A DNA stretch of 64,000 nucleotides from Candidatus Woesearchaeota archaeon (lineage in GTDB: Archaea > Nanobdellota > Nanobdellia > Woesearchaeales > JACJVV01): NCBI GenBank assembly GCA_047602755.1, contig JBLKOM010000002.1:56272-120271 (forward strand), in the 5' to 3' direction. Of the stretch, positions 22,172 to 54,315 are shown one piece after another. A program made the position numbers and the translations under genes. The notes below the pieces were generated by a model. The model was not told the DNA's origin. It worked only from the letters and a program-made list of their open reading frames with translations, and searched no databases. How positions within the stretch are numbered: the first letter of the stretch is position 1; each line of letters begins with the position of its first letter.

Positions 22172-22978
22172 TTATCTTATATATTGTTTCATAGTTTTAA
22201 TAATCTCTTGAGTAGAAACTTTACAACCAGTCCATATTCTAAAACTTTCTGCCGCTTGTTCAACAAGCATTCCTAATCCATCAATTGATTTTTTAGCTTT
22301 ATTTTGTTCACTCCAAGTACAGAATTTTGTGCGACTATATGAATATGCTAAGTCATAACATAAACTCCCTTCAACTACTTCACTATTTATTCCAGGTAAT
22401 TCGTCATTAAGACTAGTAGGTGTAGCATTAACAACTAAATCATAATCTTTACCTAAGTTATGAATATCATGAACTGTAACTATATCTGATCCAATTCTTC
22501 TAGCAAAATCACTTAAACGTGCTATATTTCTATTTGTTATAACTATTTGCTCAGGATTTTGTTGAATCAATGAAGTTACTATACTCCTCGCAGAACCACC
22601 AGCCCCAATTATTAAAATTCTTTTATTTTCTGAATAAAAATCATTATTCTCTAAATCTTTGACAAAGCCTTTACCATCTGTAGTATAACCTATTATTTTA
22701 CTATCAAAGTGAATGGTATTAACACTATTAGCTTTTTTAGCATCTTCACTTAATATGTCACAGTATTCAAAAGCTTCTTCTTTGAAAGGAATAGTAACAT
22801 TTAATCCATCATAATTTTCTCTTTTTAATTCATTTGCATAACTTTTAAAATCATGAGCAGGGATTTTTGTATATACTAATTTAATTCCAGTTTGTTTTGC
22901 AAATAATTCAAATATCTCAGGAGATCTACTATGGCTAATGGGGTTTCCTATCACAGCAAATTTATAATTATTATTCAT
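22172..22978 (-). CDS. aroE: Shikimate dehydrogenase
   Basis: 268 aa with an N-terminal shikimate-binding region (VIGNPISHSRSP) and an NADP Rossmann motif (ILIIGAGGSARS). Confidence 0.8.
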   Translation of the reverse strand: MNNNYKFAVIGNPISHSRSPEIFELFAKQTGIKLVYTKIPAHDFKSYANELKRENYDGLNVTIPFKEEAFEYCDILSEDAKKANSVNTIHFDSKIIGYTTDGKGFVKDLENNDFYSENKRILIIGAGGSARSIVTSLIQQNPEQIVITNRNIARLSDFARRIGSDIVTVHDIHNLGKDYDLVVNATPTSLNDELPGINSEVVEGSLCYDLAYSYSRTKFCTWSEQNKAKKSIDGLGMLVEQAAESFRIWTGCKVSTQEIIKTMKQYIR

Positions 22979-23823
22979 ACTATTTGAAAATCAACACAGA
23001 TTCTAAAAACTTTTGGTGAGAATTGACCGCATTTTACAATTCCTAATATTTTTATTTTAAAACCATTATTTTTACATATCTGAATAATTTTTACTTTATA
23101 TTCCTCAAATTCATTTTCATTCAAGAATCCATATAAATGGATTAATGTCCCTTTTTTTGCAACAACTAACGCACTATCTAGGAATTCTTCTGCTGTTCTT
23201 GGTAGTGGCATAATAATTCTGTTATATTTTTTTTTTAGATTAAAAACTTCTTTTCTTACATCACCATTAATTAGAGTTGTATTTTTTATTTTATTTTGTA
23301 TCACATTTTCTAATGCATATTTATGTGCTACAGGATTAAGTTCTATTCCAGTCATAGCATTATATTTTGAATTTTTCCCAATGACACAAATAAACGGAGC
23401 AACGCCTGAGAACATTACTAAAATATCTTCATTTGATTTTATTAATGATGCTATTCTTAATCTTTCTGTTCCAGATCTTACTGAGAAATAACATTTTTCA
23501 ACATGTAATTTTATTCTACATCCACTTTCTTTATGAATTGTCTCTTTTGTTCTTTTACCTGCGATAATTTTTAATTTTTGTGTTCTATATTTACCAGAAT
23601 GAAGCCCAGCTCGCTTACATACGGTTGTAATATTTTTATGCATTAGTAATATTGCTTCACCAATTATTTTTTCTTTTTTTAATAATTCTTGCTTTATTTC
23701 AATTATTACAATATCTCCTACTATATCAAAACTACTTGTAAGAAATTCCATTTCTTTTTTAGTTAATTTCTTTGCTAAGATTTCTTTTAATTTTAATGGT
23801 TTCATTTTAGTATTTTTCAACAA
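22975..23823 (-). CDS. trm5: tRNA (m1G37) methyltransferase Trm5/TYW2 family (Met-10+ like class I MTase)
   Basis: 282 aa, Met-10+ like. The SAM-binding region is DILVMFSGVAPF, and there is a conserved NP..H-like segment (ELNPVAHKY). Confidence 0.65.
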   Translation of the reverse strand: MLKNTKMKPLKLKEILAKKLTKKEMEFLTSSFDIVGDIVIIEIKQELLKKEKIIGEAILLMHKNITTVCKRAGLHSGKYRTQKLKIIAGKRTKETIHKESGCRIKLHVEKCYFSVRSGTERLRIASLIKSNEDILVMFSGVAPFICVIGKNSKYNAMTGIELNPVAHKYALENVIQNKIKNTTLINGDVRKEVFNLKKKYNRIIMPLPRTAEEFLDSALVVAKKGTLIHLYGFLNENEFEEYKVKIIQICKNNGFKIKILGIVKCGQFSPKVFRICVDFQIV

Positions 23824-24442
23824 TATCTACAATTTCTTTGAAATCATCAACCATATAATCAGCATCTAATTTATCATAATTTGTTTTAACACCAATTGTT
23901 ATTAGTCCATTTGCTTTTCCACTTTCAATATCACTAGGTGTATCTCCAACAACAAATCCAATAGTACCGCCTAAATTTTCAGCTCTTTTTTTACCTTTAG
24001 CAAATACTTCTTTTCTTGTAAATCCATCATCACCAAAACCTCCAAATGAAAAATATTTTTCAAGTTTAGGTATTGCTAATTTGGCAAAAGCAATTTTCTT
24101 AACATTACCAGTTGATAGCCCTAATAAATAATTCTTTTTTAAGATTTCTAAAGTTTTTTTAACACTAGGGTATGTCGGAACAATCTTTTTCACATTCTTA
24201 TATTCAATTATTGCATAATTTATAATTTTATTAATTTTCTTTAATATTTCATCCTTACAAATTCTTTTTTTTATTAATGCTTTATAGATAATTTCTTTAT
24301 CGACCATCCCAGGGACTGAAGTTTTTCTTACATCTATTTTTATATTAAACACTTTCTCAATTGCAATATTAAAAGATTCAGCATGTCCTGACTTCCAACC
24401 ATCAACTAATGTTCCATCAATATCAAATAATATATATTTCAT
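23807..24442 (-). CDS. HAD-superfamily hydrolase (phosphatase)
   Basis: 211 aa with motif I (ILFDIDGTLVD), motif II (GLSTGN) and motif IV (VGDTPSD). Confidence 0.65.
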   Translation of the reverse strand: MKYILFDIDGTLVDGWKSGHAESFNIAIEKVFNIKIDVRKTSVPGMVDKEIIYKALIKKRICKDEILKKINKIINYAIIEYKNVKKIVPTYPSVKKTLEILKKNYLLGLSTGNVKKIAFAKLAIPKLEKYFSFGGFGDDGFTRKEVFAKGKKRAENLGGTIGFVVGDTPSDIESGKANGLITIGVKTNYDKLDADYMVDDFKEIVDIVEKY

Positions 24443-25464
24443 ATAAATTCTCCTAAACTTTTTTGCTTTTTAGATTCTGCTTGTTCATTTAATTGCTCAA
24501 GCACTTTATTTACTCGCTCTTCTGAGAAATTATGTTTTTCGACTAGAATTTGATATACTTTTTTTGGATCAGGTTTTTTCCATTCAAGTTTATAATTATT
24601 AGTAACTGGCACATTTTTTATAGTTTGATATACTTCTTCAAAGTCAAATTCAATCTTCTCTTTTAATTCTTCAATAAGTTTATCTTTTGTTTTGTTTTCT
24701 TTAACTAATTTTAATGCATTTTTTGGACCTATCCCTTTTATTCCACCTGGATTAAAGTCAGTTCCAATTAAAATTGATAAAAGAATAAATTGCTCTTGAT
24801 CAATTCCTAAATGATTTAATACTTCACTAATCTCAATAATTTCAGGTTTATATGTCTGATAATCAAGTTTATTATTTTTTTTATGTTTTCCAACCAATGA
24901 TAAATTCCTTATTACTTTATTGCAACCAAACATTAATGTGTCTGCATCTTGTGTAGCTACGGCATATGCATCTCCTTTTTTAACCATATAACTAGACTGG
25001 GCTTCTGCTTCACTAGGGGCATCAATAACTGGAATTCCAAATGCTTCAACTAATTCCTTTGTTTCACTTATAATTTCAGTAGTTACTCTTACATTTCGTG
25101 CAGCATATTTTCTCATAGCGCTAAAATCTTTAGTTTCCATAGCTATTTTATATTTAGCTTCAGCTTCTTTTTTTGCATCTTTTCGTTTTTGTTGTTCTTT
25201 ATATTTTAATTCAGGTGATTTCCCATCAAAAACAAATATTAACTTAAGACCATATTGCAGCAATTTTCCAATTCTAGAATTGATTCCAATTAAATGTGAT
25301 GTAACTCTCCCTTCTTGATCTGTAAAGTAATTACCATCTGCTTGTCTTATGGTTGTTAGAAATTGATATAGTATCATAGGCGCATCAATACATATAATTT
25401 TTCCACTGAGTGATTTAATGTCAATCTCTTTTCCAGTAATTAATTCTTTTAATGCAATTCCCAT
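24439..25464 (-). CDS. fen1: Flap endonuclease 1
   Basis: 341 aa with XPG-N and XPG-I domains (IDAPMILYQFL, VFDGKSPELK, ATQDADTLMFG), a H3TH region and a C-terminal basic PIP-like tail. Confidence 0.9.
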   Translation of the reverse strand: MGIALKELITGKEIDIKSLSGKIICIDAPMILYQFLTTIRQADGNYFTDQEGRVTSHLIGINSRIGKLLQYGLKLIFVFDGKSPELKYKEQQKRKDAKKEAEAKYKIAMETKDFSAMRKYAARNVRVTTEIISETKELVEAFGIPVIDAPSEAEAQSSYMVKKGDAYAVATQDADTLMFGCNKVIRNLSLVGKHKKNNKLDYQTYKPEIIEISEVLNHLGIDQEQFILLSILIGTDFNPGGIKGIGPKNALKLVKENKTKDKLIEELKEKIEFDFEEVYQTIKNVPVTNNYKLEWKKPDPKKVYQILVEKHNFSEERVNKVLEQLNEQAESKKQKSLGEFI

Positions 25465-25518: not shown

Positions 25519-26550
25519 CTAAATATTAATAACAGATAAATCCTTAAATATTATTTCTTTTTGTTCTTTTGCTTTTTTACTTAATTCGCCATTTGTTACG
25601 AGTAATGAAGGTAGTTTATTATGTTGTCCTTCAATTAGTGATAATGCAAGTTCACTCTCTGTTATTCTTTTTTTATCTATAATTCTGCAATAATATTTAG
25701 ATTCACCTATACTTGATGGAACACTTGTTATTAAAGAATACTCTTTATTCTTTTTAATTTGTTCATAGCGTATTATTTTTATATTTTTATTACTAAAATA
25801 TTCAATTACTTTCTTTCCAAAATTTGTTTTGCATATGGTTAAAAACTCTTGATTTTTATCACTTATTTCACTATTATTAAAATCAGTTATCTTTGAATCT
25901 GATTTTATAATTTTAGTTTTATTTTTGAGATCTTCATTCTTTGTTTTGGTTACGTTATCAATTTTCTGTTTATTTTCATTTAATGCTTCTTGTTTTTCTT
26001 GTACTTCTTGTTTTTTTACTTCTTCTTTAATTTCATTCTTTTGCTCTTTGTCAACACTCGTATTTATCTCATTATTTTGTCTATTATTATTAATTTCACC
26101 GATATTTTCACTTTCAAAAATACTTTTTATTATTTGCTCAGCTTCTTTATCACTTAAAAGATACCACTTCCAAAATATTTCTTTATTATTATTTCTAATA
26201 ATATTTAATGGAACAGCAAAATCTTTTATTGCTCTAAGAGAGATTCTTGTTATTGGTGTTTGTTTAGAATCCCTTAATACTTTTTTTTCTTTTAATAAAT
26301 CATATGCTTGCCTATCTTTAGAATTAAGATTATTTGCAAAATTCTGTAGTTTTTCTTGATCTTCAATAAGATAATATAATGGAGAACCTCCTCCTATTTT
26401 TAAAGCACTTATTTTAATTTTTTTAGTTGAAGATAATTCTCCTAACATTGCTGATGCGAATAATTGTGTAATTCCCATAAATTTACCAAACTGAGCAGGA
26501 GTACTCGGACCATTCTGTTTTAGAAAAGATATTATTTGTTGTTCTGACAT
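25519..26550 (-). CDS. Hypothetical protein: two N-terminal winged-helix-like modules, K/E/N-rich linker, C-terminal globular domain
   Basis: 343 aa. Residues 1-65 look like a MarR/TrmB-type wH (IISFLKQNGPSTPAQFGKFMGITQLFASAMLGEL...KIKIS) and residues 80-130 form a second wH-like segment. It then has about 80 aa of KEEVKKQEVQEKQ low complexity and a C-terminal roughly 110-aa domain with no recognised motif. It sits between the endA operon and fen1 on the same strand. Confidence 0.35.
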   Translation of the reverse strand: MSEQQIISFLKQNGPSTPAQFGKFMGITQLFASAMLGELSSTKKIKISALKIGGGSPLYYLIEDQEKLQNFANNLNSKDRQAYDLLKEKKVLRDSKQTPITRISLRAIKDFAVPLNIIRNNNKEIFWKWYLLSDKEAEQIIKSIFESENIGEINNNRQNNEINTSVDKEQKNEIKEEVKKQEVQEKQEALNENKQKIDNVTKTKNEDLKNKTKIIKSDSKITDFNNSEISDKNQEFLTICKTNFGKKVIEYFSNKNIKIIRYEQIKKNKEYSLITSVPSSIGESKYYCRIIDKKRITESELALSLIEGQHNKLPSLLVTNGELSKKAKEQKEIIFKDLSVINI

Positions 26551-26618
26551 TATATTTAATAAAAAAAGATAGTTTATATTTTTATTGCTTTAGTAGTTAT
26601 ATATATTGAGTCTATATC

Positions 26619-27113
26619 TTATTTATTTGCAAATCCTTGATCTGTAGCACTAAATGATTCACCTAGCTCTAATGATAATTTCTCTAGTTCTTCTGGCAAT
26701 ACTAATTTTCCGTCTTTAACATCATATTCTGTAGCCAATGCAGCAAGAAGATCAAGATTATAATTTATTGGATCATTCATTTGTTTATAATTAACAAAAA
26801 ATTGTAATTTATTAAAATTAGCATTATTTTTAATTATTGTCGGAAAATTAAATTTAAATTTTGTTACAATCTCTTCTTTAGTTGAATAATTATTTATTAA
26901 TATTTTTAAATCATCTTTTGTAAAATCTTCATTTTCTAATGTTATTTCTATTGCAGGATATTTAATATTAAAATCTTGTATGAATTTATTGAATGCAGGC
27001 CACGCTTTTTCTAAATTATCATTATCATGTGAATACATATCAATAAATTTTAAGAATATCTTAACTAGTACTTTTATGTTTTTTTTAAATTCATTAATTA
27101 AGGCCTGATCCAT
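26619..27113 (-). CDS. Hypothetical protein co-transcribed with tRNA-splicing endonuclease
   Basis: 164 aa with no recognisable motif. Its start overlaps the endA stop by 16 nt on the same strand. Confidence 0.35.
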   Translation of the reverse strand: MDQALINEFKKNIKVLVKIFLKFIDMYSHDNDNLEKAWPAFNKFIQDFNIKYPAIEITLENEDFTKDDLKILINNYSTKEEIVTKFKFNFPTIIKNNANFNKLQFFVNYKQMNDPINYNLDLLAALATEYDVKDGKLVLPEELEKLSLELGESFSATDQGFANK

Positions 27114-27703
27114 TTTATTTCATAGTATGTTACTGAATTTTCCTCATCAACAACACCAATTAATAATCTTTTTTTTGTTGAATGCGCTACACGATTTTTA
27201 GCAGCAAATCCATACCATGTCAACGAATCTGTTTCTTTTACTGGATAAATAATCCATCTAGCATGATCCTCTCCTGGTTTTACTCCTTTGTCATACACTC
27301 TAAAATCAGCACCAAATTTTAATGCTGTCTTGATGATGTAACCTCTATTTCTAAAATCATTAAAAACTACATATCTTATCCAGAAATTTTTTTCAAGCTT
27401 TATGCATTTTCTTAAAAATTCATCTAATTTTAATATTTTTTTATTTTGTATAAGTATTATTTTTTCTTTTTCTAAAAGATAATATCCTTCAATAAGTGTC
27501 AATTGGACTCTTCCATCATCTAAAAGTGTACCATATCTTGACTTTTCATATAGATTTCTAGCTTCATTAGAACATTCAGTTATTATGCTATCTCTTAAGA
27601 AAAATGCTTCTATCTTATCATTTTTTTTCCTTGCTTCTCCAACTTTTTCTTTACTTTTACTATCTTTTTTATTAGAAGTTTTCTTTTTAGGCATTTTATT
27701 CAA
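27098..27703 (-). CDS. endA: tRNA-splicing endonuclease (EndA)
   Basis: 201 aa with the catalytic-domain signature RNRGYIIKTALKFGADFRVY...DHARWIIYPV...K. It has a K-rich N-terminal extension. Confidence 0.85.
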   Translation of the reverse strand: MNKMPKKKTSNKKDSKSKEKVGEARKKNDKIEAFFLRDSIITECSNEARNLYEKSRYGTLLDDGRVQLTLIEGYYLLEKEKIILIQNKKILKLDEFLRKCIKLEKNFWIRYVVFNDFRNRGYIIKTALKFGADFRVYDKGVKPGEDHARWIIYPVKETDSLTWYGFAAKNRVAHSTKKRLLIGVVDEENSVTYYEIKWIRP

Positions 27704-27741: not shown

Positions 27742-28665
27742 ATGTTAAGATATTATATGATTCAAGTAACATTATTAGGTACATCTTGCATGGTACCAAC
27801 TAAAGAAAGAAATGTAACTAGCTTTTATTTAGAATATAATGGGGAAGGTATCTTAATTGATTGTGGTGAAGGAACACAACGTCAAATGAATATTTCTGGA
27901 ATAAACCGTAATAAAGTGAAAAAAATTTTGATTAGTCATTGGCATGGTGATCATGTGGGTGGACTTTTAGGCTTAATCCAAACAATTTCAAACAACACAG
28001 AAGGTTCAACAATTGAAATTTATGGACCAGTTGAAACTAAAAAAAGATTTGAAATGCTTATGAATTCTACATATTTTGGAAATATTTCTAAGCTAAACAT
28101 AAAGGTTATTGAAATCTCACCTAAATCACTTGAAACATTTTATGAATGTGAGGATTATTATCTTCAAGCAATATATTTAGAACATGGAATCCCTACTTTA
28201 GGTTATCGTTTTGTTGAAAAAGATCGATTGCGCATATCTCTATCTAAAACGCAGAAATTAGGAATTCCTAATGGACCTTTATTGGGTAAGCTACAAAATG
28301 GGGAAAATATAAAACTTAATGGGAAAACTTATTTAGCTAAAGATTTAACATATAAAGTTACAGGTAAAATTATTTCTTTTATCATGGATACTTCTTATAT
28401 TAAGAACTGCTTATTGTTAGCAAATAATTCTGATTTATTAATATGCGAAGCAACCTATCTTGATAAACATATTGAAAAAAGTGAATTACATAATCATATG
28501 ACTGTTAAGCAAGCTGCCCAGATCGCTCATCAAGCAAATGTTAAAAAATTAGTTATGATGCATTTTAGTCAACGCTATAAAGATTCTTCAGAACTTGAAG
28601 AAGAAGCAAAAGATATTTTTCCAGAAAGTTATGCTGGATATGATTTCATGAAAATAAAAGTATGA
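27742..28665 (+). CDS. rnz: Ribonuclease Z (tRNA 3' processing, metallo-beta-lactamase fold)
   Basis: 307 aa with HxHxDH (ISHWHGDHVGG) and a C-terminal histidine motif (MMHFSQRY). The true start may be the ATG at 27757 (MIQVTLLG). Confidence 0.8.
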   Translation: MLRYYMIQVTLLGTSCMVPTKERNVTSFYLEYNGEGILIDCGEGTQRQMNISGINRNKVKKILISHWHGDHVGGLLGLIQTISNNTEGSTIEIYGPVETKKRFEMLMNSTYFGNISKLNIKVIEISPKSLETFYECEDYYLQAIYLEHGIPTLGYRFVEKDRLRISLSKTQKLGIPNGPLLGKLQNGENIKLNGKTYLAKDLTYKVTGKIISFIMDTSYIKNCLLLANNSDLLICEATYLDKHIEKSELHNHMTVKQAAQIAHQANVKKLVMMHFSQRYKDSSELEEEAKDIFPESYAGYDFMKIKV

Positions 28666-28700: not shown

Positions 28701-28922
28701 TTATTTCTTTAAAGCAAGTTTGATGTCATCACTTTTAATTGTTTTTCTTCCTGCATGTTTTGCATAATTTATAGATTTTTTCGCAATTTCTAATGCATAA
28801 TCCTCTAAAATTCGTTTTAATTCTTTTTTTGCATCTTCACTTACTCTTTGTGCTCCAGCCTCTACCATAATATTTTCCATAGTTGCAAGCGGCAATACTC
28901 TTGAAGATTTCGATATTGACAT
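28701..28922 (-). CDS. Archaeal histone (HMf-like histone fold)
   Basis: 73 aa. LPLATMENIMVEAGAQRVSEDAKKELKRILEDYALEIAKKSINYAKHAGRKTIKSDDIKLALKK aligns with the archaeal histone consensus (LPIAP..RI.K.AGAERVS.DA...L...LE......A...AKHAGRKTI...DI.LA). Confidence 0.8.
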   Translation of the reverse strand: MSISKSSRVLPLATMENIMVEAGAQRVSEDAKKELKRILEDYALEIAKKSINYAKHAGRKTIKSDDIKLALKK

Positions 28923-29012: not shown

Positions 29013-29402
29013 ATGAATAAAAAACAAAAGGGAACAACTGCTGAGCGAGAGCTTATTCATAAATTTCATTCTTCAGGATGGGCTTCTTTTCGTGCAGCAG
29101 GCTCAGGTTCAAGCAAATATCCGTGCCCTGATTTAATAGCTGGTAATTCTTTACGTAAAATAGCTATTGAAGTTAAATCTTTTAATGGTGAGCGAAAATA
29201 TTTTTCTAAACAAGAAATTGATGATCTTAGAACTTTTTGCTTTCAATTTGGTTGTGAGGGATGGGTAGGAATAAAATTCCAGGGAAAGGGGTGGTATTTT
29301 TTTTCCCTGGAAGATTTAAAAGAGACAATAGGTGGGTTTTCTATTGGTCTAAAAGATGCTGAATTAAAGGGTTTTTTATTTAATGAAATGATAAAATGCT
29401 AA
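29013..29402 (+). CDS. hjc: Holliday junction resolvase Hjc
   Basis: 129 aa. GTTAERELIHKF...GSGS...PDLIAG...IEVKS is the PD-(D/E)xK core of Hjc. Confidence 0.8.
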   Translation: MNKKQKGTTAERELIHKFHSSGWASFRAAGSGSSKYPCPDLIAGNSLRKIAIEVKSFNGERKYFSKQEIDDLRTFCFQFGCEGWVGIKFQGKGWYFFSLEDLKETIGGFSIGLKDAELKGFLFNEMIKC

Positions 29403-30780: not shown

Positions 30781-31080
30781 ATAGGGGGATGAGTTAGCTT
30801 TCGGTAAACTGAGGAAAGTCCACCCACTAAGTTAGGTTGCTTATCGTAAGATAAGTTCCAGAAATGGAAGGCAACCGCCCAGAAACGTACTGCCTTATTT
30901 AATGGAATGAAAACTGTAAAATAATGGTGACATTATATAAACAGTCGACGTCAATAAGGTAAGTTGAAACGGCGAGCCCCTGCCAGTGCAACTCATATGA
31001 GGCTAAGTTAAATGCTAGCAAGGATGATCAGCATTAATGTGCAAAAAGCATCCTACAGAAGGTGGCTTATCACTCCCTAT
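30781..31080 (+). ncRNA. rnpB: RNase P RNA (archaeal type)
   Basis: GC-enriched about 300-nt region. It contains the universally conserved P4/CR-I sequence GAGGAAAGTCCacc and CR-V ACAGAAggtGGCTTAtc. The 5' atagggg can pair with the 3' ccctat (P1). No ORF is present. Confidence 0.85.
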
Positions 31081-31107
31081 ATTTTTTATGTTTAATAAGA
31101 GAAAAAA

Positions 31108-54158: not shown

Positions 54159-54275
54159 TATGGACGGTCATAGCGGATTGGTCCTACCTGGTCTCATTTC
54201 GAACCCAGAAGTAAAACAATCCTGCGTTTTCCTGCGTACTGTTCTTACGAACGGGAGATGGAATTCGCTGTCCTC
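54159..54275 (+). rRNA. rrf: 5S ribosomal RNA (stand-alone copy)
   Basis: tggacggtcatagcgg...cctggtctcatttcgaacccagaagtaaaac...gcgtactg...gggagatgg...gctgtcc. The universally conserved 5S blocks (GGUCAUAGCGG, GGUCUCAUUUCGAACCC.GAAGU, GUACUG) are present. The 5' ggacgg can pair with the 3' ctgtcc (helix I). No 16S or 23S is nearby. Confidence 0.85.
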
Positions 54276-54315
54276 TTTTCTTTGTATTTACTAAAAAATA
54301 TGTAATCTAGAAAAA

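Follow-up and report, generated by a model that had tools for sequence, protein, structure and literature searches.

A Woesearchaeota-specific family of tandem winged-helix proteins with a predicted PD-(D/E)xK fold, encoded in a putative operon with FEN1

A 64,000-nucleotide (nt) stretch from a Candidatus Woesearchaeota archaeon (assembly GCA_047602755.1, contig JBLKOM010000002.1, positions 56,272 to 120,271 of the forward strand), here called the window, encodes on its minus strand a 343-amino-acid (aa) protein at positions 25519–26550 of that window. This protein, henceforth X, has the flap endonuclease FEN1 as its downstream partner and the tRNA-splicing endonuclease EndA as its upstream neighbor. 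It is best described as the representative of a large unnamed family that is specific to Woesearchaeota and that lies within the known repertoire of PD-(D/E)xK and winged-helix folds. The reading that we favor, and to which we would assign a probability of roughly 40%, is that X and FEN1 work together on the maturation of the lagging strand or on repair, with X as an adaptor binding DNA branches or flaps or as an auxiliary nuclease. Were this the case, the Woesearchaeota would possess a lineage-specific extra part in a flap-processing toolkit that is usually held invariant between archaea and eukaryotes.

That X is a real protein rather than a spurious open reading frame (ORF) is confirmed on several grounds: chance ORFs of such length are not expected at the G+C content of the window (about 26%), an identical hypothetical protein has been deposited from a Candidatus Woesearchaeota metagenome-assembled genome, and there are many clusters of homologs. 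The ORF list of the window gives a coding sequence of 343 codons on the minus strand, starting with ATG and complete with its stop codon, and the gene is present as a single copy in the window. The coordinates and the length given by the first-pass annotation, a reading of the DNA letters and their ORFs, are therefore correct. A further ORF of 144 aa, rich in F, L, S and C, runs on the plus strand (25925–26359) antisense to the K/E-rich linker of X, and is almost certainly a mirror artifact of the low-complexity sequence coding for that linker.

A word-indexed search retrieved more than 848 relatives of X, none of which has a Pfam domain; all but one of those named by their source are called "hypothetical protein", the exception being a Joint Genome Institute (JGI) entry with a spurious FlhF label. 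An exhaustive profile search enlarged the family to 1,733 clusters at 50% identity; E-values are below 1e-10 for 1,592, and the best 150 of the 1,733 are all full-length family members. When one genome of each GTDB species was scanned, at least 507 genomes were found to encode a relative, and every informative title among them is Woesearchaeota, Nanoarchaeota or Nanoarchaeia. Many of the genomes bearing the gene cluster (L008, L010, L014, L016, L032 and others in our numbering of loci, including the complete 774-kb chromosome OZ246410.1) carry the label "uncultured Methanosarcinales archaeon"; on genomes with a Woesearchaeota-specific cluster such labels look like placeholders or errors.

X itself has no match in Pfam and NCBIfam, and none among the sequences of the PDB when these were searched by phmmer and hmmsearch with full-length and C-terminal-domain profiles. 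No earlier account of the family turned up in the literature searched. There is likewise no match in PADLOC and no meaningful one in PHROGs, other members of the family also gave nothing above threshold in such profile scans, and no viral contig encodes a relative; X is thus a housekeeping rather than a mobile or defense protein. It evolves faster than the products of the neighboring genes, as its mean pairwise identity in the mirror-tree analysis is 39%, compared to 52% for FEN1, 51% for the tRNA methyltransferase Trm5 and 65% for EndA.

The family alignment consists of a strongly conserved N-terminal part of 140 residues, a poorly conserved segment rich in K, E, Q and P, and, at the C-terminus, a domain of about 100 residues that is again conserved. 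An AlphaFold2 model generated from this alignment mirrors these divisions, with a predicted local distance difference test score (pLDDT) above 90 at residues 1–150 and 230–343 and below 50 over most of the linker. The two N-terminal winged-helix modules noticed at first pass are indeed present, and in the model they are packed as one confident unit (pLDDT above 90). Winged helix 1 (residues 1–61; 26368–26550, minus strand) is a compact Z-alpha/ArsR-like version whose recognition helix is neutral and whose wing carries the conserved G-G-S-P-L-Y-Y. Winged helix 2 (residues 62–133; 26152–26367, minus strand) displays near-invariant R102, R106, K109 and D110 in its recognition helix and an aromatic/basic F126-W127-K128-W129 wing. 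In light of these residues, and of the neutral recognition helix of the first module, winged helix 2 would seem to be the likelier surface for contacting nucleic acid.

The winged helices are followed by an acidic amphipathic helix (residues 134–155; 26086–26151, minus strand), predicted by AlphaFold2 with a pLDDT of about 90–97, with an isoelectric point (pI) of 4.1 and conserved E136, A137, I141 and L145. Beyond it lies a low-complexity segment (residues 156–229; 25864–26085, minus strand) that aligns poorly, is predicted to be disordered (pLDDT below 50), and is 25 to 151 aa long depending on the family member; its family-wide composition is 20% K, 18% E, 9% Q and 8% P. The long K/E/Q-rich helical linker of the first-pass annotation was thus aptly described in its composition and not in its structure: by prediction it is a flexible tether, weakly helical and largely disordered, rather than a defined helix. 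It connects modules that are both basic, with median pI values of 9.4 and 9.6.

Structure comparisons show the winged helices to resemble regulators of the MarR, ArsR, Lrs14 and TrmBL2 types and chromatin proteins, and the tandem unit to have only a generic likeness to PyrSV gp04, TFIIIC tau138, SelB and ESCRT-II. Neither a family profile match nor a two-domain superposition links X to Cdt1/WhiP, ESCRT-II (Vps22/25/36) or ScpB, and the analogies once drawn with these proteins hence find no specific support. The first-pass interpretation, which also made X a candidate lineage-specific factor of replication, repair or RNA processing, is on the whole supported in part. The best sequence-profile match, to Z-alpha, has an E-value of 0.04 and falls below threshold. 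The contact residues of Z-alpha domains are a Lys, an Asn and a Tyr in helix alpha3 together with a Pro-Pro-x-Trp wing. On alignment to the Z-alpha domain of PKZ, winged helix 1 has S33 at the Asn position, S/A/G37 at that of the Tyr, and I or T at that of the Lys; its similarity to the domains of ADAR1, PKZ and ZBP1 is confined to the wing (S56-P57-L58-Y59 in X), and a Z-alpha identity was rejected.

The C-terminal domain (residues 230–343; 25522–25863, minus strand) is basic, and when modeled alone it reaches a pLDDT of 96 and a predicted template-modeling score (pTM) of 0.85. The core alpha-beta-beta-beta-alpha-beta arrangement of the PD-(D/E)xK (restriction-endonuclease-like) superfamily is present in the model, which shows the fold to be of the Mrr/MspJI/NucS-like kind. 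Foldseek matches the domain to MspJI with an E-value of 7e-4, and further structural matches are to AspBHI (score 9.1), NucS (8.9), AF1548 (8.0), XisH (7.4), EcoT38I (7.1), LlaBIII (7.0), the N-domain of Rpb5 (6.8) and Hjc (5.3). Concordant, weak Pfam matches appear when individual members of the alignment are searched, namely to Mrr_cat in 4 of 51 (best E-value 0.0097, sub-threshold) and to NA-iREase1, an "inactive restriction endonuclease" family. The domain had been described as globular and without recognizable motifs; globular it is, but the models of the full protein and of the domain alone give it a recognizable PD-(D/E)xK fold.

Most members of the family share E270-x-D272 on strand beta2 and K289-A-K291 on strand beta3, followed by N-K293-K294. 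X departs from this with E270-x-S272 and R289-I-I291-D292-K293-K294, giving a non-canonical site formed by E270, S272, R289, I291, D292, K293 and K294. An acidic residue at 272 is combined with a basic one at 291 in 221 of 261 sequences, whereas the 21 members of the subclade of X have lost both (with a non-acidic residue at 272 and a hydrophobic one at 291) and gained Asp292. This three-position swap, which in X falls within residues 270–294 (about 25669–25743 in the window), appears to have preserved two acidic residues beside a Lys cluster by relocating one between subclades, and resembles the active-site migration known from PD-(D/E)xK enzymes. Such a coordinated relocation suggests selection on this surface of the domain and is still compatible with nuclease activity. 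The family, which is without a name, a Pfam family or a solved relative, deserves definition as a combination of tandem winged helices and a PD-(D/E)xK fold whose charged site has been relocated between subclades; should X work with FEN1, it would also offer biochemistry a defined, small and well-folding target.

The genomic context of X was studied in a sample of 80 species-level loci whose proteins are 32–54% identical to X, with intergenic gaps measured from ORF boundaries. FEN1 (24439–25464, minus strand, in the window; Pfam XPG_N/XPG_I) is encoded co-directionally downstream of X in 72 of the 79 loci with room for it, and directly adjacent in 57. EndA (27098–27703, minus strand) lies co-directionally upstream in 69 of 77, and the order EndA, X, FEN1 holds in about 90% of the species sampled and recurs in three homologs that were looked up independently. 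The placement of X between endA and fen1 reported at first pass is accordingly preserved in direction and order across loci; in the window itself X does not adjoin endA, as a 164-aa ORF without significant family match (26619–27113, minus strand) stands between the two, with a 16-nt overlap at the stop of EndA. Homologs of this ORF were seen among the 80 loci only in the two closest relatives (L007 and L008), which marks it as a recent insertion into the conserved EndA-X junction, confined to this subclade.

The two junctions of X differ in kind. The gap from X to FEN1 has a median of 1.5 nt and is at most 10 nt in 43 of 72 loci, whereas that from EndA to X has a median of 53.5 nt and is at most 10 nt in just 2 of 72. 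Scanning for sigma-70 promoters and terminators was uninformative for so A/T-rich an archaeon, and a position-specific analysis across loci was used instead. Alignment of the 70 nt upstream of X in 79 loci revealed an element at −40 to −23 of the ATG with the consensus AACAAAAAA.TATTTAAA, a position that matches the geometry of the archaeal transcription factor B recognition element (BRE) and TATA box and would imply a leaderless X mRNA. Its counterpart in the window is the BRE/TATA-like aagcaataaaaatataaa (26573–26590, minus strand), about 23–40 nt upstream of the start codon; across loci the conserved BRE/TATA-like element lies some 27 nt ahead of the ATG. Closer to the start, a T-rich consensus at −9 to −1 across the 79 loci is represented in the window by a run of seven T (26561–26567, minus strand), a putative oligo-T terminator-like signal for the upstream unit. 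In comparison, a run of five T occurs in just 4 of the 57 adjacent X-FEN1 spacers, and the start of FEN1 is preceded by the coding sequence of X, with a consensus junction of TAA-A-ATG.

Given the promoter-like element before X and the contrast between the 1.5-nt and 53.5-nt median gaps, X can be placed at the head of an X-FEN1(-Trm5) operon, in which FEN1, as second cistron, in most species begins 0–2 nt past the X stop codon, with EndA belonging to the preceding transcription unit; translation of X and FEN1 is probably coupled. DPANN genomes are minimal, and since 507 species or more keep X in a fixed place, as the leading gene of the FEN1 operon, the protein is very likely important.

Individual loci add to this picture. 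In one of them (L045, 1739–6089), EndA is intact but is separated from X by the inserted gene of a 705-aa secreted repeat protein, and a duplicated fragment of the 3' end of EndA (residues 166–201) still stands directly upstream of X; this arrangement fits the view that the promoter region travels with X. A gene of 200–300 aa with a signal-peptide- or lipobox-like N-terminus recurs between X and FEN1 (L015, L032, L037, L042, L052, L055, L065, L070, L079, L082 and L084), and some of these intervening genes encode Cys-rich "NQGETGIDCGGPC" repeats. Among the genes inserted between X and FEN1, or found beside X where a usual neighbor is missing, none is an informative partner; they are unrelated genes, secreted or lipoprotein-like and miscellaneous. 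In the window, a HAD-family hydrolase gene (23807–24442, minus strand) lies between FEN1 and Trm5 and overlaps them by 4 and 17 nt, whereas in the closest relative (L001) it is found elsewhere, suggesting that the operon varies in its interior but keeps the X-FEN1 junction.

Taken together, the basic modules joined by a tether, the nuclease fold with a charged surface under apparent selection, the housekeeping distribution, and the co-transcription and probable translational coupling with FEN1 point to a joint role of X and FEN1. The two basic modules of X would bind a branched or nicked DNA intermediate at two of its elements: winged helix 2 would touch DNA by way of R102, R106, K109 and the aromatic wing, the nuclease-fold domain would use its Lys cluster, and the flexible tether would allow the modules to span the junction. 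X might then act with PCNA-bound FEN1 in the maturation of Okazaki fragments or in repair. Its part could be that of an adaptor that binds particular DNA structures without cutting them, or that of an additional nuclease whose non-canonical site would comprise E270 with D272 or D292, and K289, K293 and K294. The FEN1 of these loci is a canonical PCNA-binding enzyme: a PCNA-interacting protein (PIP) box is found in at least 56 of 71 loci, and in the window it is the C-terminal QKSLGEFI.

Parallels might be struck with other nucleases. NucS/EndoMS, an archaeal mismatch and flap endonuclease, dimerizes through an N-terminal beta-barrel and carries a conserved RecB-like D-E-K site and, at its C-terminus, a PIP box, in contrast to the tandem winged helices, non-canonical site and lack of a PIP box in X, which does not belong to that family. 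A parallel, purely as a functional analogy, is seen in the MUS81/XPF family, where a DNA-binding winged helix, a disordered linker and a nuclease-superfamily domain follow the same layout as in X. MUS81 is reported to interact functionally with FEN1/Rad27 (PMC3834828, PMC4330386), and it is plausible by analogy that MUS81 offers a model for a protein with a winged helix and a nuclease fold that cooperates with FEN1. In its layout X most resembles the Mrr/MspJI-type enzymes, while functionally it would stand nearest to proteins of the MUS81 kind. It is the operonic link with FEN1 that is unusual and conserved; the folds themselves are known.

Several observations weigh against a joint role with FEN1. 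The link between the two is one of genomic context only, and the operon often runs on into Trm5 (the FEN1-to-Trm5 gap, with a median of 174 nt, is at most 10 nt in 17 of 43 loci), so that tight coupling does not guarantee a shared pathway. The X-FEN1 spacer in this genome is 54 nt long and A/T-rich, and FEN1 may here have its own promoter. In the mirror-tree analysis the X-FEN1 signal is the highest (r 0.74, partial 0.40), yet barely above that of X and Trm5 (0.71, partial 0.37) and not decisive, with X and EndA at 0.60. The canonical D...(D/E)xK motif of strands beta2 and beta3 is absent from the family alignment. There is no conserved PIP box either: the pattern Qxx[ILMV]xx[FYW][FYWL], run over 261 family members, matched once in the linker and nine times in folded regions, extending to the whole family the earlier remark that none was obvious. 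X as a PCNA client by way of such a motif, which FEN1 retains, was accordingly rejected. Lastly, many genes in the neighborhood of X serve tRNA processing (RNase Z, EndA, Trm5 and RNase P RNA). A bolder version of the joint role, in which X is an obligate partner of FEN1 in Woesearchaeota, either as a second, non-canonical PD-(D/E)xK nuclease for branches or 3' flaps beyond the reach of FEN1 or as a junction-binding subunit that loads or positions FEN1, seems to us doubtful, at about half the probability of the general form.

This neighborhood might instead be taken to place X on the RNA side, as a pre-tRNA-binding accessory or an RNA nuclease of the surrounding tRNA-maturation machinery, with its winged helices and its EndA/Sen15-like fold domain binding structured RNA. 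If X served tRNA maturation, there would be a new accessory factor to add to the splicing and processing machinery of archaea. We regard this as unlikely, since the conserved promoter-like element divides X from EndA and X is tightly coupled to FEN1; moreover, the hhalign probability for X and EndA is 0.1%, the best structural matches of the C-terminal domain are to DNA nucleases, and the co-evolution signal between X and EndA is the weakest of those measured.

No better placed is the proposal that X is a sequence-specific or architectural DNA binder, that is, a chromatin protein or a regulator of its own X-FEN1-Trm5 operon, with its nuclease fold used for oligomerization or bridging. The likeness of the winged helices to regulators and chromatin proteins speaks for it, as do the first position of X in the operon behind a conserved element, the suitability of two basic modules on a long tether for bridging DNA, the loss of the Mrr-type D and K positions in the subclade of X, and the presence of a histone gene nearby. 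However, no regulator family reaches threshold: X has no Pfam or NCBIfam match to MarR, PadR or ArsR regulators, and among individual alignment members the Pfam MarR model matches 2 of 51 (E-value 0.0036) and HTH_24 5 of 51, none of them reaching the gathering score. X was accordingly rejected as a regulator of these families; its model has two consecutive winged helices and is without the N- and C-terminal dimerization helices of the MarR type. The recognition helix of winged helix 1 is neutral, the acidic and Lys residues of the nuclease-fold hairpin have moved in concert, a pattern more suggestive of a functional site than of a mere surface for oligomerization, and an order-wide fixed synteny would be unusual for a local regulator. 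The first-pass annotation had held that a confident MarR or PadR match without conserved synteny would undo its proposal; the profile searches and the loci gave the opposite on both counts.

Far less probable than either is that X is a missing structural subunit (beta, Sen15 or Sen54-like) of a heterotetrameric splicing endonuclease, pairing by its C-terminal strand with EndA, whose nearest solved relative is NEQ205, the partner-dependent catalytic subunit of N. equitans. The catalytic domain of EndA falls within the restriction-endonuclease-like fold, and an EndA-type fold match would be expected in any case. X has no sequence-profile similarity to the structural subunits PAE0789, NEQ261 and Sen15 and shows the same 0.1% in hhalign against EndA, and its loops are basic rather than acidic. 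The EndA beside it has every feature of a self-sufficient alpha4 enzyme: in the window it has both the N and C domains of Pfam tRNA_int_endo, an acidic L10 loop and the catalytic Tyr and His, and 70 of 70 Woesearchaeal EndAs combine a full-length acidic L10 (median 4 of 5 residues acidic) with the catalytic Tyr/His. In this they agree with the alpha4 enzyme of M. jannaschii, whereas NEQ205 has a shortened loop. The L10 loop has been used as a criterion for the class of EndA (PMC2761253), and DPANN EndAs of the Woesearchaeal kind have been classed as alpha4 (PMC5829648). With no profile similarity to EndA, no acidic L10 of its own and no partner with a degenerate L10, X was rejected as a subunit of this endonuclease. 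Least probable of all is an Mrr-like type IV restriction or defense nuclease with a winged-helix recognition module, for although X resembles Mrr in overall layout, has the modification-dependent AspBHI and MspJI as its closest folds and belongs to a family with the sub-threshold Mrr_cat matches noted above, it reaches no family threshold for the domains of Mrr, MspJI and AspBHI (Pfam Mrr_cat, PDDEXK clan), has tandem winged helices where these have an SRA or Mrr_N module, does not conserve the Mrr D...QxK motif (D...KxK in most family members, S...RxI with both positions lost in X), lacks any PADLOC match or viral or mobile association, and occurs in at least 507 species in an order-wide syntenic housekeeping context, unlike the patchy Mrr-type enzymes of defense islands.

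Around X and FEN1, the window encodes Trm5/TYW2 (22975–23823; Pfam) and, beyond it, an ORF that by eye reads like a shikimate dehydrogenase (22172–22978, minus strand). On the other side of EndA are an RNase Z-like gene of the metallo-beta-lactamase fold (27742–28665), matched by four Lactamase_B-family models and by the tRNase Z model below threshold, a histone (28701–28922; Pfam), Hjc (29013–29402; Pfam) and the archaeal RNase P RNA (30781–31082, plus strand; 125 bits). Thus, four functions of tRNA maturation (RNase P RNA, the RNase Z-like gene, EndA and Trm5) are found within about 9 kb, interleaved with FEN1, Hjc and the histone, while the 5S rRNA gene lies apart (54160–54276, plus strand). 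The Woesearchaeal EndA is nearest in sequence to NEQ205, the catalytic subunit of the (alpha-beta)2 enzyme of N. equitans, and retains an alpha4-type acidic L10 loop (DDEGD-like); by these sequence features it looks like an intermediate between the alpha4 and (alpha-beta)2 classes. In the window and in loci L007–L086, it further bears a Lys-rich N-terminal extension of about 30 residues.
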